Positions 7,206 through 59,040 of a DNA stretch of 64,000 nt are shown here, piece by piece. How positions within the stretch are numbered: the first letter of the stretch is position 1; every line of letters begins with the position of its first letter. Under the pieces are notes generated by a model. The model ran no database searches. It was not told the DNA's origin and worked only from the letters and a program-made list of their open reading frames with translations. The translations under genes were made by a program, and so were the position numbers. The stretch comes from Candidatus Collierbacteria bacterium (lineage in GTDB: Bacteria > Patescibacteriota > Microgenomatia > UBA1400 > JACPES01): positions 93,831-157,830 of the forward strand of contig JACPES010000002.1 in assembly GCA_016183365.1 (NCBI GenBank), given 5' to 3'.

Positions 7206-8264
7206 ATGGGATCAAGATTAGAAACGGAATCTGGAGACGGTTTGAGCGATGATAACATAGATATGATAATTTCGGCTTTTCCGATTGCGGTGGTCGGTGA
7301 GTTAATGTCCGAGGGAAATGAAGCCCGGGAGGAAGACGGGGCGGAGGAGGATGTGGGGGATATTGAAGATGTGGGGGATGAAAGGGATGGAGTGGAAATT
7401 TATATTAAACAGGCGGGCCGGACTCCCTTGCTGACGGCCCAGGAGGAGATAGACTTGGCCAAGAGAATGAAAGAAGCTGAATATGCTCGTAAAAAGATGG
7501 CCGAAGGCAACTTGGGTATGGAAAAAAAGAACCAGCTTCAAATAATAATTAATGATGGAGGGGAGGCCGAAGATCATTTGATAAAGGCAAATACCAGGCT
7601 GGTTATTCATATTGCTAAAAAGCATATGGGCCGCGGAGTGCCTTTGCTCGACCTGATCCAAGAAGGGAATATCGGGCTTATTCGGGGGACTAAAAAGTTT
7701 AATTACAGGCGGGGGAATAGATTTGCCACCCATGTTACTTGGTGGATTCGTCAGGCTGTTACCCGGGCTATCGCCGACCAGGCCCGGACTATCCGAATCC
7801 CCGTGGGTAAGATTTATCAAATAAGCAGATTAGCAAAGGTGTCAGATCGGCTGTCTCAGAACTTGGGACGGGATCCACATCAGGAAGAATTAGCACAAGC
7901 ATTGGGAATAAGTGTTAAGAGGGTGGAGAGACTGATGGAAATTGTCCGTCACCCGCTATCCTTGGAAGAACCTATCGGCGGAGATGACGACGAGACTGAA
8001 TTGGGAGATTTTCTTACGGGTGATTCGATCTCTCCAGATGAGGCGGCAAGCCAAAAAATGTTAAGAGAGCGAATAGAAAAAGTTTTCTCAAGCTTGCCTG
8101 CCAGAGAGGTCAAGATACTTCAACTGCGATATGGGTTAAAAGATGGAAAATCTTTTTCCTTGGAGGAAGTGGGGAAGAAGATGGGGATTACGCGGGAGAG
8201 AGTGAGGCAGATTGAGGCGAAGGCTCTGGGCCGGATGCGGGGCTATTTTTCGCAAGAAGATTAG
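7206..8264 (+). CDS. rpoD: RNA polymerase sigma-70 factor (primary sigma)
   Basis: Acidic N-terminal region, region 2 (LDLIQEGNIGLI...FATHVTWWIRQA), region 3 and the region 4 HTH (EEVGKKMGITRERVRQIE). Confidence 0.9.
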   Translation: MGSRLETESGDGLSDDNIDMIISAFPIAVVGELMSEGNEAREEDGAEEDVGDIEDVGDERDGVEIYIKQAGRTPLLTAQEEIDLAKRMKEAEYARKKMAEGNLGMEKKNQLQIIINDGGEAEDHLIKANTRLVIHIAKKHMGRGVPLLDLIQEGNIGLIRGTKKFNYRRGNRFATHVTWWIRQAVTRAIADQARTIRIPVGKIYQISRLAKVSDRLSQNLGRDPHQEELAQALGISVKRVERLMEIVRHPLSLEEPIGGDDDETELGDFLTGDSISPDEAASQKMLRERIEKVFSSLPAREVKILQLRYGLKDGKSFSLEEVGKKMGITRERVRQIEAKALGRMRGYFSQED

Positions 8265-8414
8265 ATATAATAATTCGCGCTTCATAGAATTTTGTCCATT
8301 AATTCCAATATCCCAGTCTCTCCATCTGCTGGGGTTTCCGCTGGCCCGCGAACTAAAATACCTGGTATTAAAAGGGCATCCAGCGGGCGAAAAGTACTTA
8401 AATTTGAGCGTCGG

Positions 8415-9875
8415 TCATGATTTCATTTTAGCAAAGTTGAAATTTCCGGCTGACAACTTTGGACCATTAGGAGAGTCTTCGATTTTGTAGCCGGCTTTAA
8501 GAATTTTATCCCGGAGCTGGTCAGATAATTGCCAGTCCTGATTTTTGCGGGCTTGCTCGCGGGATTTGATCATTTGACGGACATCTTCCGGAAGATCTAA
8601 AAAGGTTACACCTTTTAAGGTATAACCTTTTTGGGGGTTTAGTAAATCCAATCCTAATACCTGATCAAAATCGGCGATAAGATCGTGTTTATCCGAAGAA
8701 GGAATATTGGATTTAGCTACTTCCCAGACAATCGCCAACGCTTCCGGCATCTGGAGATCGTTTTCTATAGCTGCCTTAAATCGTTCAGAATAGCCCTGAA
8801 TTTTGGCCAGCTTTTCTTCAGATAAAGTTTGGCGGCCGGTGTGTGAAGTTTCGTAAACTTCACAGCAAATTTTGCGGAGATTATTCAAGCCTTCTTTGGC
8901 TGCGTTCAAGCTTTCCCAGGTAAAGTTTAATTGTTTCCGGTAGTGGGTGGTTAAATACAAATACCGCAAAGCCAGCGGCTCGAAACCCTTGGCCTCTATA
9001 TCTTCTACCCGATAAAAGTTATTCAGGCTTTTGCTCATCTTCCGTCCATCCACCATCAGAAACGCGTGATGGACCCAGAATCTGACAAATTGTTTACCGG
9101 TGGCCGCCTCGGATTGGGCAATTTCGTTTGGATGGTGGACCGAAATATGATCTTCGCCGCCGGTATGAATATCAATCGTTTTCCCCAGATATTTCATGCT
9201 CATTGCCGAACATTCGATATGCCAGCCGGGGAATCCGTCTCCCCACGGGCTCTTCCAGTGCATCGCGTGATCGGCAAACCGGCCGACTTTCTTGAACCAT
9301 AGCGCAAAATCGAGCGGATGTTTTTTGTGTTCGCCTTTTCGCACATCGTCGCGCACGGTCTGTTTCTCATCGAGATTTTGGCCAAACAATTTTCCGTAAT
9401 CGGAGAATTTGCTGATATCAAAATATATCGCTTCCGGAGTATCGTAGGCAAAATTCTTATCCATCAGTTTTTTTATCAGCTCAATTTGCTCGGTGATATG
9501 CTCGGTGGCTTTGCAAATAACGGTCGGACGGAGAATATTGAGTTTGTCGAGAGAATCGTAAAAGTGCTGTGTATAGAAATCTGCAACTTCCCATACAGTT
9601 TTCCCGGATTTTTTTGCTCCCTTTTCAAGTTTGTCTTCACCCTCATCGGCATCGGATACGAGATGTCCAACGTCAGTTACGTTTTGGACGTGAGTAACAG
9701 CAAAACCTAAATACGACAGGGACCGACGAAGGATATCGTCATTGACGTATTTCCGTCCATGGCCGATATGCGTGTAGTCATACACCGTCTGGCCGCAGGT
9801 GTACATCCCGACTTTAGGGGGATGAAGTGGAGTAAATTCTTCGATTTTTCGGGTCAAAGTATTATAAAGTTTCAT
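8415..9875 (-). CDS. cysS: cysteinyl-tRNA synthetase
   Basis: HIGH-type motif (HIGHGRKYV) and KMSKS. The probable start is MKLYNT at 9875; the ORF track extends to 9926. Confidence 0.9.
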
Positions 9876-9917
9876 ATCTGCTTGCCCAATTTTATCATTA
9901 ATGATAGTATGGTTTTT

Positions 9918-10430
9918 ATGCCTCAACCGGTGTTAGGAAATCAGGTTTTGCAGGATACTTTTGAGAAATTGGGTGATCAGGTTCAAGATGTAGTTTCCGG
10001 CTTTAAAGATTTGGCGACAGGTGGAAATGACAGTATAGGAGGGGATAATGGGATTGAGCAATTATCTGGTCAAAATGATCCGAAGTCCGGCATAGCCGGA
10101 TCTAACTCCGTGGGACAAACTGCCGATCCTCAAAGGTTAGCTCAAAGACAGGCCGAAGAGCAGGAAGCGGTTAAATTTCACCGGGAACAAGTCCAAAAAT
10201 GGGATGATAATTACAAGCGGATGAAAGAAGAAGATGAGGTCGAAAGCCGCAAAAAAGAGGAAGAAGAAAAAAAGAAAGAAGAACAAAGAATTTTCCAATT
10301 GCGGGAACAGGATGCCAGGTCGGCAGTTCTAAATCCGGTTAAACCGGGCACTGCCAAAGGGCCGGGGAGCGCGTTTGCCACGCAGTCAACAAAATCACAG
10401 ACGGAATTTTCAAAAAGCGCGACACAATGA
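9918..10430 (+). CDS. hypothetical low-complexity, charged (E/K-rich) protein
   Basis: The ORF-track N-terminus overlaps cysS on the other strand, so the start is more likely at 9909/9918. Composition suggests intrinsic disorder. Confidence 0.35.
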   Translation: MPQPVLGNQVLQDTFEKLGDQVQDVVSGFKDLATGGNDSIGGDNGIEQLSGQNDPKSGIAGSNSVGQTADPQRLAQRQAEEQEAVKFHREQVQKWDDNYKRMKEEDEVESRKKEEEEKKKEEQRIFQLREQDARSAVLNPVKPGTAKGPGSAFATQSTKSQTEFSKSATQ

Positions 10431-11104
10431 ATTGGGAAACACTTGAGCGAATCGGTTTAGTTTTAATGCTGCTGGGCTTTGCCGTTGTCGGTTGGCTGCA
10501 ATGGGGGACGTTCAGTCAAAATTCTGAAGTCCTGCGGAGGTTGACGGTGGTTGAACAAAGGTTGGATAGCGTGATAAAGAGTTCGTTAACCGTTAATCGT
10601 CAATCGTTAATGGCGACGGAAGAATGTGATCGTGAATGCGTCAAAAATTTAGTCAGCGAAGCGGTGGCGACTATTTCTGGTTTGTCCCAGCCGGCTAAAC
10701 AACAGGTTATAGAAAGAGTGGTAGAAAAAGTCCAAACCGTGTCCGGCAACTCTCCAAAAACTCAATATGTGTCTTTGGGCGCGGGTGAAACTACTAGCAC
10801 AGAATGGGTTACCCTTCCCGGAGCCGAAGTGACATTTAACATCAACGATTTCGGCAAGGTGACAGTGGTCTATTTTGAAGGTCAATTGCAAAGCGCTTCC
10901 GGGAAGGTTTATGCCAGATTGTACGATAAAAACGCCGGACCGCTTCTTGAGTCGGAGATATCTCACGCCGCCGGCGACGCTAAACTAATCAGCGCTAGGG
11001 TCAATATTTCCGGCGGGGGCCGCACAATCGGAGTTCAACTGAAAAGCGAAATTCAACAGCCGGTGAAACTCTTAAGCAGCAGGTTGAGGATAGACACAAA
11101 ATGA
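10427..11104 (+). CDS. hypothetical membrane-anchored (N-terminal TM) extracytoplasmic protein
   Basis: N-terminal hydrophobic helix IGLVLMLLGFAVVGWL. Translationally coupled to the upstream ORF. Confidence 0.4.
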   Translation: MNWETLERIGLVLMLLGFAVVGWLQWGTFSQNSEVLRRLTVVEQRLDSVIKSSLTVNRQSLMATEECDRECVKNLVSEAVATISGLSQPAKQQVIERVVEKVQTVSGNSPKTQYVSLGAGETTSTEWVTLPGAEVTFNINDFGKVTVVYFEGQLQSASGKVYARLYDKNAGPLLESEISHAAGDAKLISARVNISGGGRTIGVQLKSEIQQPVKLLSSRLRIDTK

Positions 11105-11162
11105 AAAGTGAAATGGTTACATTCGAGCCATTTTTTAAGTTTTTTTGTGTTACAATATCTTT

Positions 11163-11513
11163 ATGCCTAAACTCAAAAAAACAATCAAGACAATAAAGAA
11201 AGTTGTTAAAGTTGAAACTCAACCAATTGAACTCCGGGATTATGATTTAGTGGTAATTGTTTCCTCTAAGGTCAAGTCGGAAAAACGCCTTGAAGTTATT
11301 GGGGGAGTTAAAAAGGTAGTAGAAAAACTGGGCGGGGAATTAAAAAAAACCGGCGAGATGGGATTGCGGGATTTGGCTTATACTATTGCCGGTGAACAAA
11401 GCGGTTGGTATGCCAGTCTGGAAGTTGGCCTTAATCCTCTTACCTGCGCCAAATTTGAGGAATCTCTTAAACAGAACAAAAATATCCTGCGGCATTTATT
11501 AATAAAAAAATAA
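11163..11513 (+). CDS. rpsF: 30S ribosomal protein S6
   Basis: S6-like sequence and the conserved rpsF-ssb-rpsR order. Confidence 0.8.
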   Translation: MPKLKKTIKTIKKVVKVETQPIELRDYDLVVIVSSKVKSEKRLEVIGGVKKVVEKLGGELKKTGEMGLRDLAYTIAGEQSGWYASLEVGLNPLTCAKFEESLKQNKNILRHLLIKK

Positions 11514-12004
11514 TGAGTTCCAGAAGTTTAAATAAAGTTTTATTGATTGGAAATTTAACCGTTGATCCGGAATTGCGTTATACCCCGCAGGGGACAGCCG
11601 TAGCCACTTTCAGTGTGGCCACTAATCGCAATTGGACGGATCAGGCTGGACAACCTCAAGAAGCAGTTGAATTTACCAGATGCGTGGCTTGGGCTAAATT
11701 GGCCGAAGTCTGTTCTAAAATTCTCAAAAAAGGCCGTAAAGTTTATGTCGAGGGTAGATTGCAAACCAGGGAATGGGAAGGCCAGGATAAAACCAAGCGC
11801 CGGACTACCGAAGTGGTCATTGATAATATGATCGCTTTAAATCCGTCGGGAACTGCCGCCGGCGCTGGAGTTCCCGCAATGCCGGTAGCTCCATCAGCTA
11901 AACCATCAAAGAAAAAAGCGGTTCAACCAGAAACAGATGAGGAAGTTCAATCCGGGAATAAAGCCGAAGACGAGATAGTGGCGTCGGAGGATATTCCATT
12001 CTAA
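11513..12004 (+). CDS. ssb: single-stranded DNA-binding protein
   Basis: OB-fold N-terminal region, a Gly/Pro/Ala-rich linker and the acidic C-terminal tip DIPF. Confidence 0.9.
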   Translation: MSSRSLNKVLLIGNLTVDPELRYTPQGTAVATFSVATNRNWTDQAGQPQEAVEFTRCVAWAKLAEVCSKILKKGRKVYVEGRLQTREWEGQDKTKRRTTEVVIDNMIALNPSGTAAGAGVPAMPVAPSAKPSKKKAVQPETDEEVQSGNKAEDEIVASEDIPF

Positions 12005-12017
12005 TCAACTTATTTTT

Positions 12018-12260
12018 ATGATGAAAAGACAAAGACGTCCAATCAGAAAAATAAAAGTTCCAAAAGCATGTCAATTTTGCAATGGTAAGTTTGAGCCGGA
12101 TTATAAAGTAATTTCCTCTCTGGAAAGGTATACTTCGGACAGGGGGAAAATTTTAGGGAAAGACAGGACCGGAATTTGCCGGAAACATCAAGACAGACTT
12201 GCTACAGCCATAAAAAGAGCCAGACATTTAGCTTTAATGCCTTTTACACCAATAGCTTAA
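12018..12260 (+). CDS. rpsR: 30S ribosomal protein S18
   Basis: CQFC...DYK...L.R..S..GKI ... TGIC.KHQ..L..AIKRAR matches the S18 signature. Confidence 0.9.
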   Translation: MMKRQRRPIRKIKVPKACQFCNGKFEPDYKVISSLERYTSDRGKILGKDRTGICRKHQDRLATAIKRARHLALMPFTPIA

Positions 12261-13544
12261 GTGACGCTTCAAAGACTTCGAAAGACTATTTATTACTGTT
12301 CTTTCCTGCTTTTGTCAGGAGGGATCGGGTATTGGTTTGGACAAAGGGAGATTGCCATCAAATGGCAATCTTTGAAACCAGAGATTCTAATTGTCAATAA
12401 AGCTTTGCCTCCGGAGAATAAAGATATAAATTTTGGCTTATTTTGGGAAGTGTGGAATAAATTGGAAAAAGAATATTTAGATGAAGCCGCCGTCAACAAA
12501 CAAAAAATGTTTTACGGGGCTATCTCCGGTTTAACCGCTTCTTTGGGAGACCCGTATACGGTATTTTTGCCTCCTCAAAAACAAGAAGAATCCAAAGAAG
12601 AGCTTGCGGGGGAATTCGGCGGAGTGGGAATCCAGTTGGGATTTAAAGAAGACAGATTGGTGGTTATTGCCCCTTTAGACGATACTCCGGCTAAACTGGC
12701 CGGAATTGAGGCCGGAGATTTTATTTTAAGGATTAAAGACGAGAAAAAAGAGATTGACCGGGAGACGGATGGGATAACTTTGCCGGAGGCGGTGGATATC
12801 ATTCGCGGCCAGAAAGGCGATCCGGTGGTCCTGACTATTTTCAGGGGGAAGCAAAAACCTTTTGAAGTGTCGTTGAAGCGGGATACCATTTTAGTAAAAA
12901 GCGTGGAAGTCGAGTTTGTCGATTGGCCTTTAGACGGCGATAATTCCGTGAATAAAAAAACAGTGGCCGTAATAAGGTTGTCTCGATTTGGGGATCGTAC
13001 CGTGTCGGAGTGGAATAAAGCGGTAGACAAAATTATTAAAACCGCCAATGATAAAAAGGATAATTTTGGCGGAATGGTTTTGGATGTCCGGAACAATCCC
13101 GGTGGATATCTAGAAGCGGCTATTGCAATTTCCTCCGAATTTTTCCGCGACGGGACGGTGGTTGAACAAAAAGGTAAAATTACTTCTCATCCGTTCAATG
13201 TCGAGCGTCCGGGAAAATTGATTGATATGCCGTTGATAGTTTTGATCAACGAAGGTAGCGCTTCGGCTTCGGAAATTGTCGCCGGCGCTATTCAAGCTCG
13301 GAACCGAGGCGAACTGGTGGGCAAAAACACTTTTGGCAAGGGGACGGTTCAGGATGCCATGGAATTAACCGGCGGAGCCGGATTGCATATCACCACCGCC
13401 AGATGGTTATTGCCCAACGGCAATTGGATTCATGATGAAGGATTGAAACCTGATGTCGAGATAGATTATGATCAGGAGGCGAGCAAGGATCAGAAGTGGG
13501 ATAATCAGATGAAGAAGGCGATGGAGGTATTGGTAAAAGGTTAA
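12261..13544 (+). CDS. ctpA: carboxyl-terminal processing protease (S41 family) with PDZ domain
   Basis: S41 motifs (GGVGIQL..., LINEGSASASEIVAGA, TFGKGTVQ). The start is GTG. Confidence 0.85.
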   Translation: MTLQRLRKTIYYCSFLLLSGGIGYWFGQREIAIKWQSLKPEILIVNKALPPENKDINFGLFWEVWNKLEKEYLDEAAVNKQKMFYGAISGLTASLGDPYTVFLPPQKQEESKEELAGEFGGVGIQLGFKEDRLVVIAPLDDTPAKLAGIEAGDFILRIKDEKKEIDRETDGITLPEAVDIIRGQKGDPVVLTIFRGKQKPFEVSLKRDTILVKSVEVEFVDWPLDGDNSVNKKTVAVIRLSRFGDRTVSEWNKAVDKIIKTANDKKDNFGGMVLDVRNNPGGYLEAAIAISSEFFRDGTVVEQKGKITSHPFNVERPGKLIDMPLIVLINEGSASASEIVAGAIQARNRGELVGKNTFGKGTVQDAMELTGGAGLHITTARWLLPNGNWIHDEGLKPDVEIDYDQEASKDQKWDNQMKKAMEVLVKG

Positions 13545-13564
13545 AAAGGTTTAAAAGGTTAAAA

Positions 13565-14713
13565 ATGAAACGTTTTTTTGTCGGATTCGCTATTGGCGTT
13601 CTCGTTGTCGTTTCTGCCGTCGGCGGAGCATTGACGGATCGGCTTTATAATTTGCCGTTTATATCTAAATTCGTTTCGGGGAAAACCGGTTCTCAACAGA
13701 AAATATTGGAACAAAAAGTGCTCAAGGAAGAATCGGTAGTGGTTGATATCGCAGAACAGGCCAGTCCTTCCGTGGTCACGGTTTCCGTCACTGCGGAAAA
13801 ACAAACATTGGAACCATTTTTCATTGATCCTTTCGGACTGTTTGAATTTAATCGTCCCGGCAGAAAAGAACAAGTTAAGCAGGATATCGGCACAGGTTTT
13901 GTGATCGACGGGGGATTAGTGGTCACCAATAAACACGTGGTTTCCAGCACCGATGGCAAATACCGGGTAATTACCAAGGACGACAAAGAGTTTCAGGTTA
14001 ATAAAATTTACCGTGATCCCACCAATGATATTGCAATTTTAAAGGTTGACGGAATGTCGGTTACGGCGATTCGCTTAGGAGATTCAGGGAATCTTAAAGT
14101 CGGCCAGTTCGTGATCGCTATCGGCACCGCCCTGGGAGAATTCAGGCATACGGTAACCACAGGCGTGATTTCCGGGTTGGGACGGGGAATTCAGGCAGGT
14201 GATCCTTTCGGGGGAAACGCCGAACAGTTGGACAATGTAATCCAAACCGACGCGGCCATCAATCCCGGGAACTCCGGTGGTCCGCTTCTGAACAGCGCCG
14301 GCGAGGTCATAGGCATCAATGTAGCGGTAGCCCAGGGCAGCCAAAATATAGGTTTTGCTTTACCGATCAATTCCGTTAAAGAAGTAGTCGATAGTTTCCA
14401 AAAAACAGGCCAATTTGAGCGGCCGTTCTTGGGAGTTCGGTATAGAATGGTGTCTCAAAAAGCGGCGATTTTAAATGATGTTCCCCAAGGAGCATACGTG
14501 GAGGACGTGGTAGCCGGATCTCCGGCTGATAATGGCGGGATATTGAACGGAGACATTATTACCAAAATCGGCGGGAATAAAATTGAAGGCAAAGATGATT
14601 CAGGCCTGGCCAAGGAAATTGCCAAGCGCAAAGTGGGGGATACAATAGATATAGAAGTATGGCGCGATGGCCAGACTAAAAACCTCAAAGTGACGCTTCA
14701 GCAGTCGGAATAA
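13565..14713 (+). CDS. htrA: HtrA/DegP-family trypsin-like serine protease with C-terminal PDZ
   Basis: Catalytic triad context (TNKHVV; DIAILKV; GNSGGPLLN) and a PDZ region. Confidence 0.9.
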   Translation: MKRFFVGFAIGVLVVVSAVGGALTDRLYNLPFISKFVSGKTGSQQKILEQKVLKEESVVVDIAEQASPSVVTVSVTAEKQTLEPFFIDPFGLFEFNRPGRKEQVKQDIGTGFVIDGGLVVTNKHVVSSTDGKYRVITKDDKEFQVNKIYRDPTNDIAILKVDGMSVTAIRLGDSGNLKVGQFVIAIGTALGEFRHTVTTGVISGLGRGIQAGDPFGGNAEQLDNVIQTDAAINPGNSGGPLLNSAGEVIGINVAVAQGSQNIGFALPINSVKEVVDSFQKTGQFERPFLGVRYRMVSQKAAILNDVPQGAYVEDVVAGSPADNGGILNGDIITKIGGNKIEGKDDSGLAKEIAKRKVGDTIDIEVWRDGQTKNLKVTLQQSE

Positions 14714-14745
14714 TTCAATTCTCCGAAATAATCGCTAGTTTTCGT

Positions 14746-14964
14746 TTAGCTATTTAATTCTTCTTTGGAGATTTTGCTTTCACGAAGAATGGAAAATAGC
14801 GTGCCTTCTGGAATTTCCCGTAAATGAAACGGTACATTGGCGCGAAGATTCGTTTTTGGATGTCTGAAAATCATATGGCTACCGGTGGTCCTTTGTAGAA
14901 TAAAGCCCAATTTTTCCAACTTACGGATAAATTCTTTGGGTTTGATGGCCGGAAGTTTTCCCAT
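14746..14964 (-). CDS. hicA: HicA-family mRNA interferase toxin
   Basis: 72 aa; KLGFILQRTTGSHMIFRHP (YcfA/HicA fold with a conserved His). Confidence 0.8.
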   Translation of the reverse strand: MGKLPAIKPKEFIRKLEKLGFILQRTTGSHMIFRHPKTNLRANVPFHLREIPEGTLFSILRESKISKEELNS

Positions 14965-14967
14965 GTA

Positions 14968-15225
14968 TCAAACAGCTACTTGAGGAAATCTAAAATCGAG
15001 AACAGACAAAAAGGATTGATCGTCAGAGGGGATTTCTTCCCCGTCTTCTCTCATACATTCTACAAATCCACCAATGGCGTCGATAGCCATTCTTCTGGCC
15101 TCATCCAACGTTCTGCCATATGTCACACAACCCTGCAAACTGGGGACAACTACAGTATAACCCCCTTCAGGCTCGGGCTGAAAAATAACATTAAATCTCA
15201 ATATTCTTTCTGAAATTTTATTCAT
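14968..15225 (-). CDS. hicB: HicB-family antitoxin (UPF0150, RNase H-like fold)
   Basis: 85 aa; FQPEPEGGYTVVVPSLQGCVTYGRTLDEA is typical of the HicB N-domain. It lies immediately upstream of hicA in the same operon. Confidence 0.75.
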   Translation of the reverse strand: MNKISERILRFNVIFQPEPEGGYTVVVPSLQGCVTYGRTLDEARRMAIDAIGGFVECMREDGEEIPSDDQSFLSVLDFRFPQVAV

Positions 15226-15261
15226 ATACCTATTTTACCACGCCAAATAATTTGTTACTTT

Positions 15262-15420
15262 AGAGTCACGCTTCAGCAGTCGGAGTAGCAGCCTTTGGGA
15301 TTTTCAGCTGGCAAGTTTGGGTAATATCGCCTATATTTCCTTCTAAAATTTCCTCCAAATTGTGCCAAGAGCGATTGATCCGGTGATCGGTAACTCTATT
15401 TTGGGGCCCGCCGAATTTTA
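15262..15420. pseudogene. diverged duplicate of the htrA 3' end (RVTLQQSE*) together with a prfA 3' end fragment (PQNRVTDHRINRSWHNLEEILEG...)
   Basis: The 17-bp string acgcttcagcagtcgga is identical at 14693-14709 (true htrA end) and 15268-15284. The minus-strand translation of 15266-15410 is about 70% identical to the prfA C-terminus. Confidence 0.55.
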
Positions 15421-15483
15421 GCACTCGGCTTTAGGTTCTATTCGAACACGTCTCGTGCTGCAATTTCTGGCGGGCTCGCAAAG

Positions 15484-16482
15484 TCAGTCAAGGAGTTGTT
15501 GCACTTCACTTATGATTTCTTCTAAACCTCCCTCAAGAACAACATCGAGGTTATGCCATGACTTGTTAATTCTATGGTCGGTAATTCTATTTTGCGGGAA
15601 GTTGTAGGTTCGGATTTTTTCGGCTCTGCTTCCACGACCTACCGCTGTCGTCCGTTGCTGCTCTAAAGTTTTAAGCGTCTTTTCTTGTTCTATTTCCCAC
15701 AATTTAGACCGCAATAGCTCCAGAGCTATGGATTTATTTTGTTGTTGGGTTCTTTCTTGTCTGACGGAAATAACCAGACCACTGGGAATATGGGTTAACC
15801 GGACAGCCGTGCTGACTTTATTTACATTTTGACCGCCTGGTCCGCCGGAATGGGAAAAAGCCCACGCCAATTCATTATCTTTGATTTCAACTTCTAAGGG
15901 AGTGATTTCCGGCAAAACTACTACCGATGCGGTCGAAGTGTGTATCCGGCCGTGGGATTCGGTTTGGGGGATCCGCTGGACCCGGTGAACGCCTGATTCG
16001 AATTTTAATAAGCCATAAGGTCCAACCTGTGATTCTGAATTCTGAATTCTGAATTCTGAATTTGGCGCGCCGGCAACTTTTATTATGCCGTTGTCTATAA
16101 CGACGGTTTTTAATCCAATAATATCGCAAAATCTGCTGTACATCCGCGCCAGGTCTCCAACCCAGATTTTAGCCTCATCTCCTCCGGCTCCGGGGCGGAT
16201 TTCGATGGTGGCGAAACGGGACAATAATTGCTGATTGTCCCGGCTTTGCCGAGTATCCCGCTTCGCCCTGTACCAGACGGTACGGGGCTCCGCGGGATTA
16301 ATTGTTGATTGTTGATTGGAGGATTGTTGAAAGTTAATGCTTTGCCCCAAAACCCGTTTTTGGTCTTCCAATCTTTGTATTTCTTCTTGGGCCAGAGCCG
16401 ATAATTCCGGATCATTTAACAATTGCCGATTGCGGGAGATTTCAAATTCTAGTCGTGAAATTTCATTCTGAAGATCGTTCAA
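15484..16482 (-). CDS. prfA: peptide chain release factor 1 (shortened N-domain; tripeptide motif PQT)
   Basis: GGQ motif (SGGPGGQNVNK) and GVHRVQRIPQTESHGRIHTS, which matches the RF1 PxT region. The start is TTG and overlaps the stop of a short upstream uORF. Confidence 0.88.
   Translation of the reverse strand: MNDLQNEISRLEFEISRNRQLLNDPELSALAQEEIQRLEDQKRVLGQSINFQQSSNQQSTINPAEPRTVWYRAKRDTRQSRDNQQLLSRFATIEIRPGAGGDEAKIWVGDLARMYSRFCDIIGLKTVVIDNGIIKVAGAPNSEFRIQNSESQVGPYGLLKFESGVHRVQRIPQTESHGRIHTSTASVVVLPEITPLEVEIKDNELAWAFSHSGGPGGQNVNKVSTAVRLTHIPSGLVISVRQERTQQQNKSIALELLRSKLWEIEQEKTLKTLEQQRTTAVGRGSRAEKIRTYNFPQNRITDHRINKSWHNLDVVLEGGLEEIISEVQQLLD
16032..16059. repeat. 7-bp x4 tandem repeat (attctga) inside prfA
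   Basis: gattctgaattctgaattctgaattctgaattt encodes NSEFRIQNSES. Confidence 0.8.
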
Positions 16483-16488
16483 TTGAAA

Positions 16489-16578
16489 TTATCGCGATCC
16501 CAATCTACGAATTTCATCCGAATGTTCCGAATGGTGAAATTCGGATAATTCGGATGTTGATTCGGATTATTCGGATCG
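16489..16578 (-). promoter_or_regulatory. upstream element family B copy (directly 5' of prfA, overlapping the rpmE stop)
   Basis: The reverse complement reads atccgaataatccgaat ... cattcggaacattcggatgaaattcgtagattgggatcgcg, then the prfA start. Confidence 0.6.
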
Positions 16579-16869
16579 CCCCTTTGCTTCCGACAACATT
16601 TCCTTCAAAGTTTTTTGGGACACGTCGGACCGGAAAGCAGTCTTTTTTTGTTTTTTTCTATATGAAGATGAAGCCGTCATTTTAGCCTGAAATTTTTCCA
16701 CTCTTCCCTGGGCGTCAACGAATTTCATCTGGCCGGTATAAAACGGGTGGCAAGCTGAACAGACATCGGTTAGAATTGATGGTTTAGTCGAGCCGGTGGT
16801 AAACTTATTTCCGCAAGCGCAAGTTATCGTCGCTTCCGGATAATATTGAGGATGAATATCGGTTTTCAT
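16567..16869 (-). CDS. rpmE: 50S ribosomal protein L31
   Basis: [10 protein letters not shown]...CACGNKF...[10 protein letters not shown] is the classic zinc-ribbon L31. Confidence 0.9.
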
Positions 16870-17005
16870 GAATTTGAATTCGATGTCTTGAAGATAGAAG
16901 ACGGATATTTTTGAACTTGAATTTTTGACTTTTTGATAACTTGATTCAAGAATTCAAAAACATCAAAATCAAAAAATTCAAGAATTTCCAACTTCAAGAA
17001 ATCAA
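16870..17005. repeat. intergenic element family C (cttgaagatagaRga ... ttcaagaaatc words) upstream of rpmE
   Basis: Shares cttgaagatagaagacggata / cttcaagaaatc motifs with 34790-34929, and gaagatagatag with 36990-37100. Confidence 0.6.
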
Positions 17006-17998
17006 TTAATTTGATTTGGAGAATTCCATTCTGAACACTCCGAGAATTATTATACCAGTTGCCGCCAGAAAGGCTAGGCTCAAAGGTTCTTTCAGGAATA
17101 ATATCGAAACAGGTATGCCAAACAGGGCTTGCATATAAAGGAAGCGGGAGGCAATTAGAGGCCGAACTAATTTGGCGGCGGCTTCAAATGCCATAAAGCC
17201 CAAGACAGATGAAATTAAAGATAAATATAAGATTCCGTACAGCAAAATCTTGGGAGTGAGGGTAAATGACAGTGGCGTCAAAATATAGTTTGGATTAATA
17301 AAATAAATTATTGGCGCCAAGGCCATGGTGCCGCCAAGAAACGCCAATGCCATCAGAGTGATCGGAGAATTCTGCTGAATATTTTTGGCGTATTTGATTT
17401 TAGATAGCCATGTAGAAACCGCCCAAACTATGCCGGCTGATAAAACTAACAAATTGCCGGTAAATCGCGGGTAATCCGAACTGCCTTGTAGCCACAAGGG
17501 TTCGAATATCACGATTATTAATCCGGCCACGGCTGCAAAAGTGACCGGGTCTGCCCGCAACGCTTCGCGTAGCGATGCGGGCGGGGAAACTTTATTAATT
17601 TGCCGGTTAAACCAATTTAAAATCACCGCGGTAATCAATGGGTTTAACGACATGATCAAAACCGCCCGGCTGGCATAGGTTAAATTCAAACCTAGATAAA
17701 GCAAGATTAGCGAGGCAATTGGGCCAGAAATCCCCAATAAAGTTATCAGCAAAGTTCTGCGGAAAGATAAATATTCCCCGGAAGTTTTCCAGCTATAAAG
17801 GGCCAGTGGCGCAAAGATTAAAGAGGCAATGCTCAACCTATACCACAGCAGAGGAAGCGGCGGTAAAAATTGCAGCGAGGCTTTTATGATCGGGAAACTA
17901 ATTCCCCAGATTAAACTGGTTAAGAGCAACAGTTGAATCGGTTTTCTATTATTATTATTTGTCGGCACTGATACTTTAATTGTATCCTGACAAGCCAA
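17006..17998 (-). CDS. EamA/DMT-family transporter (10 TM)
   Basis: Polytopic 330-aa protein with a duplicated EamA-like architecture. Confidence 0.65.
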   Translation of the reverse strand: MACQDTIKVSVPTNNNNRKPIQLLLLTSLIWGISFPIIKASLQFLPPLPLLWYRLSIASLIFAPLALYSWKTSGEYLSFRRTLLITLLGISGPIASLILLYLGLNLTYASRAVLIMSLNPLITAVILNWFNRQINKVSPPASLREALRADPVTFAAVAGLIIVIFEPLWLQGSSDYPRFTGNLLVLSAGIVWAVSTWLSKIKYAKNIQQNSPITLMALAFLGGTMALAPIIYFINPNYILTPLSFTLTPKILLYGILYLSLISSVLGFMAFEAAAKLVRPLIASRFLYMQALFGIPVSILFLKEPLSLAFLAATGIIILGVFRMEFSKSN

Positions 17999-18023
17999 TA
18001 TGCAACCAATGTGTTGTCAGACC

Positions 18024-18935
18024 CTATTTCTTTTCTCCGGTCAGGACTCCGATGCCAATCAGGATGATTCCCAAGATGGTTAGCGGCGCCAGACTCTCGT
18101 GAAGAAATATCAGGCTGACCGGGATGGCGATTAAAGGCTGTAAGTAGGTAAATAATGATGCTTCCGAGATCTCGATTAAATTTTGTCCGGCCAGATAAGT
18201 AGTCGCTCCGATGATGGATCCAAAAATCGCCATATAAATTACCGGCCCCAGAACTTGAGTTTGCAGGATTTCAGGCCCCAAAAACGTCAACGGATTTCCC
18301 GATGGCAAAGATAAAATGAAGAAAGTTATAGCGCCTATCCAAAAACTAATCATAGTTACGGCTAGTTTGGAGGTTTTCCGATAGGTTTTTTTAGCCATTG
18401 CCAAATATCCAGCCCAGATGATGTTTTGCAATAATATTAAGGCGTTTCCCAGGAAGTTGCCGGATAAATATCCACCCTGGTTTATTAATGGTCCAACGGT
18501 GATAATCAATGTTCCCAACAGAGCTAAAGCCAGTCCTTTCCACTCTTTCTTGGTTTCTTTTTCCTTTAATATAAAAATTCCGGTCAAGGTGACAAATAGG
18601 GGTGAAACCGAGGCTACCAGCGAGGCCTCAACGGCCGAAGTGAATTTGAGGGAATAATACAAAATCCATAATATTAAAGTGGTTCCGATCAACTCCAATA
18701 GGCTGATTTTTACTAGGGTTTTTAAATTCAACCTCCATTTTTGCCAGTTTAACGCCAGAAAAGGAAGGGTAAGTATGGCGGCTAACAAAAACCGGTAAAA
18801 CAGAAATCTTTCCGGAGCGGTAAACGACAGGGCCGGTTTGACGATCGGAATTGCCAATCCCCAGACGATGGTATTGATGATCAATAATAGGTAGGCGAGT
18901 TTGCGTTTAGGGGACATGGGAAGGGAGTTCTTCAA
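18024..18935 (-). CDS. EamA/DMT-family transporter
   Basis: Polytopic 303-aa paralog of the upstream gene. Confidence 0.65.
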   Translation of the reverse strand: MKNSLPMSPKRKLAYLLLIINTIVWGLAIPIVKPALSFTAPERFLFYRFLLAAILTLPFLALNWQKWRLNLKTLVKISLLELIGTTLILWILYYSLKFTSAVEASLVASVSPLFVTLTGIFILKEKETKKEWKGLALALLGTLIITVGPLINQGGYLSGNFLGNALILLQNIIWAGYLAMAKKTYRKTSKLAVTMISFWIGAITFFILSLPSGNPLTFLGPEILQTQVLGPVIYMAIFGSIIGATTYLAGQNLIEISEASLFTYLQPLIAIPVSLIFLHESLAPLTILGIILIGIGVLTGEKK

Positions 18936-20175
18936 TTGAAATTATCTTCTGCGTTTTTTCCTTCATATTCTTTAGAGTCACCACATTTTTTGCCGCTTCT
19001 TCCGGCCCGATAATCACCACGTACGGAATTCCCTTCCTGTCTGCGTATTTAAGTTGTTTATCCAATTTTGCTTCCGGCTCCAGATAAACCTCCGCGTTGA
19101 TACCTGCTTTACGGAGATTGTTTGTCACTTTAAGAGATGACTGGTAAAAATCCGGATCGAATACGGTAACTAAAACTTTGGTTTTGATTGTCTCCAATTT
19201 TGGATACTTTCCGTTGGCTTTAAGAATTTCTTCCAAGACCATATCTCCCATCGCAAAGCCGACTCCGGGAATTCTCTGCCTGCCGCCGATTTCTTCGGTC
19301 AAATTGTCATATCGGCCGCCCCCCCAGATAGATCTGAACTCTCCCTTAATGTCCCAACCCTCAAACACTGTCCGGGTATAGTAATCCAGCCCCCGGACAA
19401 TCGTCGGATCAAACTCGACAAATTCTCCCACCCCCATTGTCTGCACCAGAGATAGAATTTTCGATAGCCATTCGGAGTTGACATATCCTTGTTTGTCTTG
19501 AAGAATATTTTTCAATTGTTTTGTTTGAGTCGGGTTTAAGCCCTCTTGCCCTAGCATCTTGTCGAAGACGACGTCGGGAACTTTTGATTTCTTGTCAATA
19601 ACTTTAAAAATCGCCGTCATTTTTTCATCACCTGCACCTATCAACTCCAATTTCTCCCGGATATATTTCCTGTCATTTATTTTAATTCTGACTTCGGTAG
19701 GGGATAACCCTAGACTTTGATACATCTTTGCCGCTACCGAAATTACTTCGGCGTCGACCTCCGGATTTTCCAATCCCAAAATATCCACATCGCATTGAAA
19801 AAATTCTCGTCCCCGTCCCCGCTGGGGAGTTTCATAGCGAAACCGCGGCCCAAAGGAAAACCATTTGATCGGAAAAACCAGGCTTCCGGCTTTCTTGCTT
19901 ACCATCCGCGCCAAAGTCGGTGTCATTTCCGGCCGCAGCGCTAAAATTTTCCCAGATTTATCCGTTAAAGTAAACGCCTGTTTTTTTACCAATTCTTCGC
20001 CGGACTTAGCGGCATATAAATCAAGGGTTTCCAACATCGGCCCTTCGTATTCTTCAAATCCAAAGCTTTCGGCGATAGACTTAAACTGTCGATACAGCCA
20101 ATTCCGAAACGCCATCTCCAGCGGATAAAAATCCCGGAAGCCTTTGAGTAGTTGTGGTGTATTCATAGTTTGCAT
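18907..20175 (-). CDS. hisS: histidyl-tRNA synthetase
   Basis: Class II motifs (FRYE..Q.GRGREF.Q; GGGRYD) and a C-terminal anticodon-binding domain. The start may instead be MNTPQ at 20166. Confidence 0.9.
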   Translation of the reverse strand: MQTMNTPQLLKGFRDFYPLEMAFRNWLYRQFKSIAESFGFEEYEGPMLETLDLYAAKSGEELVKKQAFTLTDKSGKILALRPEMTPTLARMVSKKAGSLVFPIKWFSFGPRFRYETPQRGRGREFFQCDVDILGLENPEVDAEVISVAAKMYQSLGLSPTEVRIKINDRKYIREKLELIGAGDEKMTAIFKVIDKKSKVPDVVFDKMLGQEGLNPTQTKQLKNILQDKQGYVNSEWLSKILSLVQTMGVGEFVEFDPTIVRGLDYYTRTVFEGWDIKGEFRSIWGGGRYDNLTEEIGGRQRIPGVGFAMGDMVLEEILKANGKYPKLETIKTKVLVTVFDPDFYQSSLKVTNNLRKAGINAEVYLEPEAKLDKQLKYADRKGIPYVVIIGPEEAAKNVVTLKNMKEKTQKIISIEELPSHVP

Positions 20176-20179
20176 TGTA

Positions 20180-20609
20180 TCAAAGCTTTGATGCTGACAA
20201 TAGCCCTAGGGCTGCAGACATGCGTTGTTTTTCATTGCCTAAATCGGTTCGGTTAGAAAGAATAACCACTGTAAGTTTTTCCCGCGGAATTTTCAGGATA
20301 ATGTTTCTAAATCCGGCCCATGATCCGCTCTGATAGATAACTTTTGTTTTAAGTCGTTTTCTAATTAACCAGCTGAATCCTGCTTTGCCAAATTTTCCAT
20401 TTCTCCCGGTTAACCAGAGTTTCTTCGTCCCATGCCCGACTCCACTTGACAATATCTTCGATGTTGGAATAAACTCCTTCGTCTCCAACAATATAATTCA
20501 AGGGATCATAATCACAAAGCCTGAATTTATTTTTTGGCAGTGATTTATAACCTAATGCCAGATTTTTAATTTCCGGTTTTGTTTGATTTAGAACATCGGA
20601 GTTATTCAT
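20180..20609 (-). pseudogene. truncated and frameshifted serine hydrolase / beta-lactamase-family gene (C-terminal half only)
   Basis: Two overlapping frames (20361-20609 and 20180-20491) carry beta-lactamase-family C-terminal features: YSN.EDIVKW, then ..GHGT...SG...VVILSNR. The N-terminal SxxK catalytic part is absent. Confidence 0.5.
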
Positions 20610-20801
20610 TTCTAGCGGCTAAAAAATATTTTTTTTTAAAAATTTCCGATAAGTAATCATTGAAACTTGTTCAATAATTAAAGCCAGTAAAACATATCCA
20701 GCGTCAGAATATTTATATTTACTTCCCGGCGAGAATAGGGGAGTCGGCCGACTTTCCACTACTTTCAAAGCGTCCGTCATTTTTCATCTTTGTATCGCAG
20801 T

Positions 20802-20827
20802 ACTTCAATTATTTAAATAATTGAAGT
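20802..20827. terminator. perfect 13-bp-arm palindrome (acttcaattattt|aaataattgaagt) followed by a T-run
   Basis: Seen directly in the sequence. It lies at the 3' end of the minus-strand pseudogene, so it may act as a bidirectional terminator. Confidence 0.3.
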
Positions 20828-20830
20828 AAT

Positions 20831-21795
20831 TTACTTTTTTTGAATCTCATTTTTCCATTTGTAATACGCTGTCATTTCTTGGTCAGAAATTGGGGTAATA
20901 ACAGAAAGTTGTCCTTGGGCACCGGCAAGAATGGTTTTAGCGACGCGGAATTCTTCAAAATTTACCAAAACTACTCCTTGTTGGTCGTTATCTTTAATAT
21001 CTTTTATAGTCTTTCCTTCTCCGGCATACATGCCGAAATATCTAATCGAAGAATCTTTGATTTCGTTTGGGTCAACCTTTATTTCAATTTGTTGAAAATA
21101 CTCAACTTCTCCGGCTATGATTTCCGGCAGTTGGGCTTGGAAACCAGGCAAGTGATTGGTTTTGGTAATGCCTGGTTTAACTTATCAACGGCCTCGTCAA
21201 CAATCGTTTCCCGCTCTTCTCGTGTCTGCGCATATCTCCAAACTCTTTCTGAGGTCGCTTCGGTTGATGGAATCATGACAATAATTTCTGGATCGCCAAT
21301 TTTAGCTAGTTCTGTTGTCATCTTCTGGATTCTTGGAAGATTGAAAAGAACAATAGATGTTTCCGGTTCGCTCTTGACTTTGCAAACTGGATATTTTCCC
21401 GGAAGATCTTGCTCCCATTCAAACGTGAGGCAGTTCCAAACGATGAAATCCGTGGATTTACCTTGCGAGAATTCCATCAGGTCTTTTGCCAGAAGTTTTT
21501 CGTTTTGTTGCGTATCGTCTGCCTCAAGAATCCAGCGTCTCCGGCGCTGGTTTTTAAGCCAATCGATAAATATTGCCACCTCAGGACTTATTTTTGGCGG
21601 TTTTTCACTGCCGTTTAACGCTCGCTTGATAATTTCTTTTGAATAACGCAGCCCCGTTTGTTGTCGGATTTTTCTCACTGCGATTTTAAACGAGTCCTTG
21701 TCGTTTGGGCTAGCGATAATGGCTTGAGCAGAAAATTCATCCTGCTCTAGCCGCTTAAGAAATGATTGAGAGATTTGTTCTATATTGATTTTCAT
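20831..21795 (-). pseudogene. frameshifted gene of unknown function (two frames: 21115-21795 and 20831-21151)
   Basis: The downstream ORF continues the upstream one after a frame change in the 21115-21151 overlap. No recognisable family. Confidence 0.4.
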
Positions 21796-58944: not shown

Positions 58945-59040
58945 GATCCTAATAAATCCGAATTCATCCGAATGCTCCGAATAGTATAGTATTAAATAGT
59001 ATTAGGATTATTCGGATGTCATTCGTAGATTTTGATCGCC
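58945..59040 (+). promoter_or_regulatory. upstream element family B copy; its internal ATG is used as the start of the next pilin-like gene
   Basis: atccgaattcatccgaatgctccgaat ... attattcggATGtcattcgtagattttgatcgcc. Confidence 0.6.

Follow-up and report, generated by a model that had tools for sequence, protein, structure and literature searches.

The junction between htrA and prfA in this groundwater Collierbacteria genome is probably a two-layer recombination scar, produced via diverged alleles at a site where the two genes formerly overlapped tail to tail. One layer would have given prfA a new 3' end, leaving the old one stranded downstream, and the other would have placed a hicB-hicA cassette directly behind htrA. 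The locus is instructive, yet it is no new kind of system.

Layout of the htrA/prfA junction

The features of the junction are listed below with the evidence for them in brackets; the window is the whole 64-kb stretch of DNA that was analysed, and coordinates refer to it.

13565-14713, plus strand: htrA, intact, HtrA/DegP-type serine protease with one PDZ domain (Pfam)
14682-14712, plus strand: left copy of the htrA/prfA overlap with exact core 14693-14709, the live last codons of htrA
14714-14745, no strand: 32-bp flank from the htrA stop to the hicA stop (sequence comparison)
14746-14964, minus strand: hicA, 72-aa toxin gene (PF07927)
14968-15225, minus strand: hicB, 85-aa antitoxin gene (PF15919)
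15232-15240, minus strand: extended -10-like box TGGTAAAAT, putative hicBA promoter (read from the sequence)
15257-15287, plus strand: right copy of the overlap with exact core 15268-15284, fossil of the htrA end and end of the orphan RF1 tail
15266-15424, minus strand: orphaned 3' end of the native prfA, consisting of 'D2' and the native tail (similarity to native RF1 alleles)
15406-15483, minus strand: conserved hairpin spacer, stem 15406-15475 (conservation and folding)
15484-15597, minus strand: live replacement prfA 3' end, 'D1' PQNRITDHRINKSWHNLDVVLEG plus short tail GLEEIISEVQQLLD and stop
15484-16482, minus strand: prfA (RF1), intact (PCRF and RF-1 domains, blastn)

Logan contigs assembled run by run match the window at 100% identity in nine sequencing runs, in six of which they cross all the joins between htrA and prfA. 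The gene identities given in an earlier, sequence-only reading of this DNA hold, as Pfam domains identify hicA, hicB, prfA (PCRF and RF-1 both present) and htrA (Trypsin_2, 2.4e-33; PDZ_2, 9.3e-17).

The ancestral junction and its duplicated overlap

The direct repeat on which the sequence-only reading was built is real, since the 17-mer ACGCTTCAGCAGTCGGA occurs at exactly two sites, 14693-14709 and 15268-15284, 575 nt apart, against 0.01 expected from shuffles, and no third site is found across the 64-kb window with two mismatches allowed. Both copies translate in frame as (K/R)VTLQQSE-stop, as had been claimed, and at the same spacing the repeat extends to 31 nt of 84% identity (14682-14712 against 15257-15287).

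Empty htrA-prfA junctions were sought in relatives and found in L095, L094 and L013, which share the synteny S41-htrA/prfA-rpmE-EamA with the window and in which the two genes overlap by 29 bp, 23 bp and about 35 bp, respectively. Compared with these empty sites hicBA is an insertion and the repeat a part of the target that has been duplicated, in agreement with the earlier reading. The htrA genes of the window and L095 are gapless and colinear to the stop codon at 85% DNA identity, and the left copy of the repeat follows the L095 junction, which has a single copy, as far as 14714 (3 mismatches over the final 64 nt) and diverges after that point. L095 and L096 each have one exact 17-mer, located at the junction, and in L095 one strand of it reads TLQQSE and the opposite strand PTAEA. 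The flank 14714-14745 has no counterpart in the empty-site relatives or beside other hicBA copies. It should also be mentioned that the last 120 nt of htrA are 92-95% identical in the L095 comparison against a mean of 85%, and a recent recombination tract from an L095-like donor is weakly suggested for this 3' end.

The live and the orphaned end of prfA

The prfA core (15551-16209) is orthologous to that of the relatives at 77-80% DNA identity by blastn and alignment, whereas nothing corresponding to the tip (15484-15550) exists in L095, L094 or L013. Among the 120 closest RF1s the live short tail type is common only to P0007 and P0008, from L093 and L097, and the native tail type is found in at least 20 of the closest RF1s.

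Behind the repeat, the minus strand at 15266-15424 is an open frame, MLKFGGPQNRVTDHRINRSWHNLEEILEGNIGDITQTCQLKIPKAATPTAEA, that translates as an RF1 C-terminus and is 56% identical to the live one over 36 aa (E=2e-14), which bears out the earlier recognition of a prfA-like end at this place. Nor is the similarity confined to the 17-mer, for alignment gives 67% identity between D1 and D2 over a 69-nt prfA core besides the 31 nt at 84%. The frame has no stops or frameshifts in 47 codons. It matches the RF1 of L095 (P0009) at 76% over 49 aa, reaching the C-terminal end of that protein (E=2e-26), and P0006 at 75%; its homology to native alleles covers 15264-15406, with 79% DNA identity to L095 6010-5868. 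The RF1 tails of L095, L094 and L013 (...LEGNIGDIIQ.CQ.EIPK..PTAEASL) match this orphan and not the live prfA tail. Judged by these matches, it is the middle copy that represents the original junction, and the live prfA tail arrived later, the reverse of the earlier notion that the diverged copy was a secondary duplicate. Furthermore, 14 of the 23 differences between D1 and D2 are synonymous (pS=1.0, pN=0.16; P=2.5e-5), and all comparisons involving D2 give pS of 0.6-1.0 and pN of 0.06-0.16. Since the differences are mostly synonymous and saturated, D1 and D2 come from different functional alleles, each having evolved as a working gene, and drift of one copy or decay of a target-site duplication, as had been proposed, does not account for them.

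The statement that hicBA sits inside a duplicated junction is correct as far as the two copies of the htrA end are concerned, but the two prfA-end copies flank 15407-15597 instead, that is, about 190 bp made up of the new short RF1 tail and the 78-nt hairpin. In L093 and L097, which lack hicBA, the live short tail is followed by a hairpin that is almost the same and by a second copy of D, with the joins at the same nucleotide, and their short-tail-hairpin structures each precede a different orphan tail; the two layers are independent of each other. L097 is about 81% identical to L093 overall and 99-100% identical over D1, tail, hairpin and the first 12 nt of D2, beyond which its D2 is the native sequence of L094 with 1 mismatch (L094 and L097 are from the same sample, and this part of the mosaic evidence lies on short metagenome contigs, possibly strain chimeras). 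The D2 of the window matches native L095 at 32 of its first 33 nt, and it follows from this match and the switch in L097 that each orphan resembles the native tail of its own background. Different orphans behind one live tip are represented by three sequences, two of them short contigs.

The hairpin

The spacer between the orphan and prfA forms a long, imperfect hairpin that begins about 8 nt past the prfA stop. Over 78 columns it is 95-96% identical between the window and L093/L097, compared with 75-80% in the flanks (P about 1e-4), its conservation is at or above the 99th percentile among 81-nt windows in the roughly 7 kb compared, and the folding energy is -27.7 to -34.7 kcal/mol (z -2.7 to -4.4). 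Rfam gives no match at the hairpin, neither at the gathering threshold nor at E up to 10, and the sole match in the scan is a chance hit on the opposite strand inside prfA. As a dispersed repeat the hairpin is absent from the 64-kb window and from all fetched loci except L093 and L097, and a scan for consensus promoters and terminators returned sites no more numerous than in shuffles. The hairpin probably serves prfA as a terminator or insulator in the absence of the former gene overlap.

Between the window and L093, D1 plus tail are only about 78% identical, and the 95-96% of the hairpin can be reconciled with this only if the hairpin is under selection or a short tract was recently converted. 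It is conceivable, if rather unlikely, that the piece of about 190 bp is a self-propagating mini-module, which targets the PQNR(V/I)TDHRIN-coding site of prfA and spreads among Collierbacteria, orphaning the tail of each host, with the hairpin as a core that may be a recombination signal or a structured RNA. If true, an essential translation gene would harbour an element without cargo that replaces the end of its host gene. When metagenomes were scanned for the hairpin/D2 junction with a degenerate pattern, no match came up, and since L097, a JGI contig, has the pattern and was not found, the scanned collection evidently does not include such short contigs. Scanning metagenomes with the RF1 protein yielded distant relatives only (at most 61% identical), none with the hairpin or a second D copy. 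The locus draws attention to a short non-coding hairpin that is far better conserved than the adjoining genes.

The hicBA cassette

By its domains and gene arrangement, the cassette looks like an intact type II toxin-antitoxin pair, with hicB (15225-14968) followed by hicA (14964-14746) on one strand after a 3-nt spacer. HicA matches HicA_toxin with E=8.5e-16 and 58 bits (cut-off 27), as well as PDB entry 1WHZ (1.3e-11) and the HicA structures 6G26 and 4C26, and the His of its GSH motif is aligned to the His of GGH in 1WHZ. HicB matches HicB_lk_antitox with E=3e-10 and 40.7 bits (cut-off 27) over profile positions 4-57 of 123, and residues 1-69 of the solved HicB proteins 6U0I, 6HPB, 6G1C and 6G1N (138-148 aa); by both the profile and the PDB comparison it has the N-terminal domain alone and no C-terminal RHH/HTH DNA-binding domain. 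Short HicB/UPF0150 forms exist, and the length of 85 aa therefore marks a subtype while membership in HicAB is kept. A TGnTAnAAT box is found 6 nt upstream of the hicB ATG in every aligned related cassette, and TGGTAAAAT, though missed by the consensus scan, is likely to be the cassette's own promoter. PADLOC reports nothing for HicA, HicB or a 127-aa ORF of L093.

Relatives of the HicB are 86-89% identical in amino acids and 76-82% in DNA, and the similarity ends at the ORFs and the -10 box, in L189-L194 as well. Such cassettes occur in at least five other contexts (after rho, before rpsA, beside PNPOx, beside ogt and elsewhere); the copies are patchy and mobile-like in distribution, with the toxin gene decayed in some relatives. 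The htrA/prfA junction itself is a variable spot whose content differs among relatives, which agrees with part of the earlier description of it as an insertion hotspot, but no other toxin-antitoxin cassette is found at this junction in the 80 loci surveyed, and for such cassettes it is at most a candidate hotspot.

Origin of the scar

In the ancestral arrangement htrA and prfA stood tail to tail with an overlap of about 25 bp. In the first layer, the C-terminus of RF1 would have been displaced by a piece of about 190 bp joined precisely at the Pro-Gln-Asn codons of the conserved PQNR(V/I)TDHRIN motif, bringing alternative last 38 codons, a stop and the 78-nt hairpin, so that the resident last 47 prfA codons, which end within the last codons of htrA, were moved downstream to become the orphan. 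In the second layer, which may have come before or after the first, a hicB-hicA cassette of about 540 bp with its own likely promoter would have been placed exactly after the htrA stop. Because the overlap is duplicated and now stands on both sides of the cassette, htrA and the orphan tail both keep their own endings. Each layer would most likely result from recombination with the DNA of diverged relatives, with one join anchored by homology in the conserved gene and the other illegitimate or at short homology, and the later spread between lineages could proceed by ordinary homologous recombination, making a transposase or integrase unnecessary. The sequence-only reading had also considered recombination with a divergent homologous locus, and this is indeed a better fit than transposition, but a single event is unlikely in view of L093 and L097, which are without hicBA. 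No intermediate allele was found among the relatives, neither one in which hicBA accompanies a native prfA tail nor one that has the short-tail module but only one copy of the overlap, and sliding identity along prfA has too little power to place the recombination breakpoints of the window. At 17-31 bp, the duplication exceeds the microhomologies that are usually reported at illegitimate joins.

A site-specific mechanism would also fit the fact that the hairpin-to-D2 junction is exactly alike in the three module-bearing sequences, which represent three backgrounds. Here a circular hicBA and a separate short-tail/hairpin module would have been integrated by a recombinase acting in trans, the 17-mer and the hairpin edge being att-like. 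We consider this unlikely, although the exact 17-bp repeat bounds the cassette on both sides and is single at the empty site of relatives, and although imperfect, GC-rich direct repeats enclose the hicBA cassettes of L103-L107, which have swapped flanks. The ORFs scanned between 7206 and 22220 are housekeeping genes or have no Pfam hit, with no integrase or transposase in about 7 kb on either side, and a shared core is likewise missing, as the 17-mer (up to 3 mismatches) is near none of the hicBA copies in L098-L107. In addition, the similarity of the overlap copies does not stop at the core but goes on with mismatches, as would be seen in two allelic coding ends, and the hairpin, inspected by eye, has no attC-like R'/R'' boxes. 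The 17-mer is best not interpreted as an att site unless more evidence is found.

Quite improbable is the notion that the orphan is no fossil and that the hairpin and a 52-codon ORF (MLKFGGPQNRVTDHRIN...) constitute a maintained unit, either a structured RNA with a small RF1-derived peptide or an alternative RF1 ending. It would agree with the pN/pS of about 0.1 obtained when D2 is compared between the window and L093 (P=1.3e-5), with the absence of stops and frameshifts from D2, with the rank of the hairpin among the most conserved 81-nt stretches, and with the fact that the GTG start, which lies within the hairpin arm, and the LKFGG codons are kept in all three sequences. However, the LKFGG codons belong to the 3' arm of the hairpin, a Shine-Dalgarno sequence is not apparent, and the tails past D2 are unrelated between the window and L093, each being like a different live RF1 tail type. 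D2 furthermore tracks the native alleles of its own background, which explains the low pN without a function. As to frame, the orphan is out by 2 nt with respect to prfA in the window but in register in L093, a difference caused by a 1-nt indel in the hairpin loop; read-through or frameshifting from prfA into the orphan was rejected, since the frame relation differs between the two. A protein search with the orphan peptide gives four RF-1 fragments only, and in annotation the 52-codon 'RF-1-like' ORF is better treated as a gene fragment.

That a single hicAB insertion duplicated the whole htrA-3'/prfA-3' junction, with one copy of this target-site duplication decaying to about 70%, would explain both the direct repeats that bracket the cassette and the twofold presence of the prfA 3' end. 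It is nonetheless very improbable, since it is the short tail and hairpin, not hicBA, that lie between the prfA copies, the same structure exists without hicBA in L093 and L097, synonymous sites are saturated with differences between the copies while non-synonymous ones have few, and live genes of relatives match the supposedly decayed copy. Finally, an assembly chimera of co-occurring strains with native and short-tail junctions is barely credible, since, even though some Logan contigs stop inside the orphan (at 15334 and 15400) and strain mosaics are seen in related contigs, all junctions are spanned at full identity in six per-run assemblies, the duplication flanking hicBA would go unexplained, and two further, independent assemblies have the hairpin-to-D2 join with D2 sequences that differ.

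Comparison with known systems

Several classes of element were considered and rejected. A transposon, IS or MITE would not be expected to lack terminal inverted repeats, and no inverted repeat bounds 14714-15256; moreover the duplication of 17-31 bp, against 2-14 bp for such elements, is imperfect outside the core. An integron cassette was dismissed, as there is no IntI in the scanned surroundings and the hairpin arms GCCCGCC/GGCGGGC are without R''/R' boxes (RYYYAAC / GTTRRRY), and a diversity-generating retroelement (TR/VR) likewise, as the 67% identical copies differ at bases of every kind and no reverse transcriptase is found among the neighbours.

The toxin-antitoxin pair resembles known HicAB in having both Pfam domains, tight coupling, an inferred promoter of its own and the conserved HicA His, but it differs from E. 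coli hicAB in its antitoxin-first order and from the solved HicB proteins in having an 85-aa HicB without RHH/HTH. Integrative elements at 3' ends (islands in tRNA, tmRNA and protein genes, prophages) are similar in that incoming DNA supplies a new 3' end, the old one is left as a direct-repeat remnant and the junction takes the same position across hosts; here, however, there is no integrase, only about 190 bp with no cargo are involved, and the copies are 67% identical rather than sharing an identical att core. Bacteria that are naturally transformable show homology-facilitated illegitimate recombination (de Vries & Wackernagel 2002; Prudhomme et al. 2002), which combines one-sided homology and non-homologous insertion with no mobile-element machinery, as proposed here, and can leave partial duplications at the illegitimate join; the present case differs in being deduced from sequence and in having duplications of 17-31 bp and about 50-65 bp that exceed the typical microhomologies.

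A similar process is known from rhs, CDI and T6SS effector loci, in which C-terminal displacement leaves orphaned 3' tips (Jackson et al. 2009; Kirchberger et al. 2017, PMC5361080). As in these loci, a conserved 5' core is kept while foreign DNA brings a new in-frame 3' tip, the previous tip persists directly downstream without a core, one live tip is accompanied by different orphans in different lineages, and homology-anchored illegitimate recombination followed by spread through homologous recombination is the proposed route. The gene is however the essential housekeeping RF1 and no polymorphic toxin, its tips are equivalent C-terminal helices with no immunity gene, the displaced tip overlapped a convergent neighbour so that the event also resolves a gene overlap, and the incoming piece ends in a strongly conserved hairpin. 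Membership in the polymorphic-toxin family was thus rejected, the process being alike but the domains being those of RF1, with no pair of toxin tip and immunity gene. The locus keeps a readable intermediate fossil of how small, streamlined CPR genomes would gain accessory cassettes between overlapping essential genes, and it suggests that an essential RF1 can swap its C-terminus by a displacement process so far described for polymorphic toxin loci.

Gene order and assembly support

The nearest public genomes to the window are groundwater Candidatus Collierbacteria MAGs (Microgenomates/Patescibacteria). Logan per-run assemblies from nine runs match it at 100% identity and, since six of these cover htrA through prfA, the arrangement below is not a one-off misassembly.

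Features of the htrA-prfA region (window positions)
12261-13544, +, S41 protease gene
13565-14713, +, htrA (trypsin-like domain and PDZ)
14715 to about 15256, piece 1: hicA and hicB with 32- and 31-bp flanks, bracketed by the two overlap copies
14746-14964, -, hicA (PF07927, E=8.5e-16)
14968-15225, -, hicB (PF15919, E=3e-10)
15266-15424, -, 159-nt open frame with RF1-like C-terminus, 59 nt from prfA
15338-15406, D2, orphan prfA segment
15407-15550, piece 2: hairpin spacer and short tail, bracketed by D1 and D2
15484-16482, -, prfA (PCRF and RF-1 domains, RF1-type PQT motif)
15529-15597, D1, live prfA segment encoding, like D2, PQNR(V/I)TDHRIN.SWHNL..LEG
Beyond prfA: rpmE, then two EamA genes, then hisS

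The duplicated overlap and its ancestral copy

The 17-mer ACGCTTCAGCAGTCGGA occurs twice in the window, at 14693 and 15268, against an expectation of 0.01, and the similarity between the two copies of the htrA/prfA overlap (the last codons that the genes share tail to tail) widens to 31 nt at 84%. Both copies encode (K/R)VTLQQSE-stop, and outside the core they differ at aaa/aga, gtg/gtc, gaa/gag and taa/tag, three of these four differences being silent. Furthermore, the middle copy, read on the minus strand, encodes a peptide 56% identical to the live RF1 C-terminus over 36 aa (E=2e-14). The duplicated junction described in the sequence-only reading is thus correct and extends beyond the 17-mer, but the polarity proposed there, with the middle copy as a drifted second target, is wrong. 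The relatives L013 (HtrA 87% identical in amino acids), L094 and L095 (DNA 77-85%) have the synteny of the window without hicBA, with tail-to-tail overlaps of roughly 35, 23 and 29 bp, respectively, and their RF1s end in ...LEGNIGDIIQ(T/A)CQ(L/Q/R)EIPK..(P/Q)(T/S)AE.., a type of tail shared by 20 or more of the closest RF1s. The middle copy LEGNIGDITQTCQLKIPKAATPTAEA agrees with such tails to the final residue (76% over 49 aa to P0009, the RF1 of L095, E=2e-26, and 75% to the RF1 P0006), and it is the live window prfA that ends in LEGGLEEIISEVQQLLD instead. Since the relatives' tails match it and the L095 junction holds the exact 17-mer only once, the middle copy (about 15257-15406) is, on sequence comparison, the ancestral junction, a fossil of the original overlap, and what is new is the tail on the live prfA.

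The 17-mer is the overlap proper, encoding HtrA TLQQSE on one strand and RF1 PTAEA on the other. An insertion between genes sharing their last codons would have to double the shared segment or else destroy one gene. If the long RF1 tail was still in use when hicBA arrived, any product with a damaged overlap copy would have been lost. The perfect 17-nt core between differing flanks would then be explained, because the core was coding on both strands. We infer that hicBA came first and the tail displacement later, but the order may have been the reverse, or the whole arrangement may have come by homologous exchange from an unsampled donor.

Two separate insertions

Compared with the empty-site relative L095, the window contains two distinct additional pieces. 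The closest contig by DNA (L093, 82%, from Hainich groundwater) and a further relative, L097, both have the live short tail LEGNL(G/R)EIVKEMLQQLS, a 78-nt spacer 95% identical to that of the window and a second D copy joined at exactly the same nucleotide. In place of hicBA, L093 has a 127-aa ORF of no assigned family followed by an htrA with another PDZ end; the L097 contig stops short of the cargo position. The hairpin together with a double D is found in only three of the 142 fetched loci with the RF1 D motif, namely the window, L093 and L097. The short-tail/hairpin piece is therefore not tied to hicBA. Insertion at a duplicated target, as first claimed, is real, non-random and recorded in the sequence, but the number of events was wrong: one event, which other lineages share, gave prfA its replacement ending and the conserved hairpin, and hicBA was inserted separately.

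The last ~130 bp of htrA in L093 (2674-2807, the PDZ end) share no homology with the window or L095 and belong to the type seen in the more distant L188 (...SLTSQ-stop), so the htrA side has also had its 3' end exchanged in the L093 lineage.

Alleles and mosaic tracts

Synonymous sites are saturated in every copy comparison, live orthologues included (pS 0.6-1.0), and non-synonymous change is low: pS and pN are 1.0 and 0.16 for window D1 against D2, 0.87 and 0.08 for window D2 against L093 D2, and 0.73 and 0.06 for window D2 against the native long-tail allele of L094, with the synonymous excess significant at P between 1e-5 and 3e-3. The window orphan has 47 codons without stop or frameshift, and the D copies are alleles rather than decay products. 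Each orphan resembles the native allele of the background in which it lies: over its first 33 nt, window D2 is identical to L095 at 32 positions, L097 D2 matches L093 for 12 nt and then the native L094, from the same sample, for 21 nt with one mismatch, and the orphan tail of L093 (..GDLGIVLKETITKLSF..) is of the '..KLSS' type, as are the live tails of P0012, P0021 and other RF1s. In addition, L097 and L093 are about 81% identical overall and 99-100% over D1, tail and hairpin. The simplest reading would be repeated displacement, the short-tail/hairpin piece having been placed, or moved by recombination, into differing backgrounds and the resident tail having been displaced each time.

The prfA genes of L093, L094 and L097 also share 100%-identity tracts of 90-430 nt within otherwise ~80%-identical sequence (L094 111-534, for example, equals L093). 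Either recombination among co-occurring Collierbacteria lineages is very frequent or the assemblies are strain-chimeric; the contigs behind the mosaic tracts are short and metagenomic, and part of the tracts could be such chimeras.

The hairpin spacer

The spacer, starting about 8 nt past the prfA stop, folds on either strand as a long imperfect hairpin (-27.7 to -34.7 kcal/mol, z -2.7 to -4.4), has no U-tract and matched no family in an Rfam search. Between window and L093 it is 95-96% identical, against 75-80% for D1, tail and D2, a contrast with a chance probability of about 1e-4. Ranked among the 81-nt windows of about 7 kb, this conservation reaches at least the 99th percentile and is equalled only within 11444-11616 (rpsF and ssb). 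It may reflect either selection or a short recent conversion tract, and if selected, the hairpin could act as terminator or insulator now that the convergent genes lie apart, or be an RNA element or a recombination signal. The comparison covers two distinct hairpin sequences only.

The hicBA cassette

HicA carries the GSH histidine of the family and matches 1WHZ and solved HicA proteins, HicB is the short form with the N-terminal domain only, and 6 nt ahead of the hicB ATG there is an extended -10-like box, TGGTAAAAT. Related cassettes, their HicB 86-89% identical (76-82% for DNA), are present in groundwater metagenomes in at least five other contexts: beside a PNPOx gene (with hicA internally deleted), after an ogt-like gene, before a DUF4325 gene, 23 bp after rho and upstream of rpsA. 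A TGnTAnAAT box is found at equal distance from hicB in all of them, similarity ends at the ORFs and this box, and the 17-mer was never found beside these other copies. Evidently this cassette moves, yet there is no sign of machinery dedicated to its mobility: there is no integrase or transposase gene within 7206-22220, and no inverted repeats bound the insert.

In four relatives (L098-L100 and L102, e.g. L098 4001-4352) an internal deletion equivalent to window 14797-14926 leaves an orphan hicB and a toxin remnant. In L103-L107 (e.g. L105 70-100 and 598-625) related hicBA genes, in three upstream/downstream flank combinations, have imperfect, GC-rich direct repeats at their borders (..CGGTTCCCGCGC.. 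/ ..GCGGTCCCCGAGC..), possibly recombination sites of that cassette lineage.

Variability of the junction

Among 80 surveyed loci with convergent htrA and prfA, the gap is at most 241 bp, often an overlap, in 45, and more than 300 bp of unrelated genes intervene in 35. These encode a 23S-rRNA-IVP protein, CarD-like and DUF218 proteins, an EEP nuclease, an aspartyl protease, an FkbM methyltransferase, a PIG-L deacetylase, PaaX/Cas2-like proteins and many ORFs without family, but in none of the 35 a toxin-antitoxin pair. The proposed hotspot hence holds as a variable junction, though not as a specific toxin-antitoxin landing site. The Collierbacteria-like set comprises three empty sites (L013, L094, L095) and three differently filled ones, with hicBA in the window, the 127-aa ORF in L093 and a PaaX-like gene plus a 162-aa ORF in L188. 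A different toxin-antitoxin-like pair (Gp49/HigB-like and HTH_3 genes) adjoins hisS in L095 (861-1491), a few kb from the junction.

Other repeats in and near prfA

GC-rich palindromes of ~42 nt and of one family lie at 16250-16297, within prfA, and 28820-28861, with a weaker match at 37523-37542 (pattern TCCCGCGRAGCC..GTACCG....GGTAC..GGC.AAGCGGGA, four matches against 0.08 expected). A perfect 7-nt tandem repeat within prfA (16032-16062, ATTCTGA x4.4) is coding (..NSEFRIQNSE..); most Logan contigs reaching into prfA stop there (16060-16061), and relatives hold other insertions at this spot, such as PARSGYAAGVAGG in L093. In the prfA/rpmE gap (16515-16576), AATTCGGAT is repeated in an array (x4), alongside an inverted repeat of 18 nt, CATCCGAATGTTCCGAAT / ATTCGGATAATTCGGATG; a similar inverted repeat, CATCCGAAT...ATTCGGATG, lies at 58965-59018.

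Comparison with known systems

None of the five aligned relatives has the 19-aa in-frame insertion that the palindrome within prfA encodes; this palindrome resembles the in-frame palindromic elements of Rickettsia. Toxin-antitoxin cassette gain, C-terminal displacement and recombination between diverged alleles are all known processes, and the locus is of moderate interest in that they act here at the essential RF1 gene, resolving a gene overlap, and in the unexplained conservation of the hairpin. The prfA tail swap follows the 'C-terminal displacement' pattern known from rhs and T6SS loci, where it has been explained by homology-facilitated illegitimate recombination and subsequent homologous exchange (PMC5361080).
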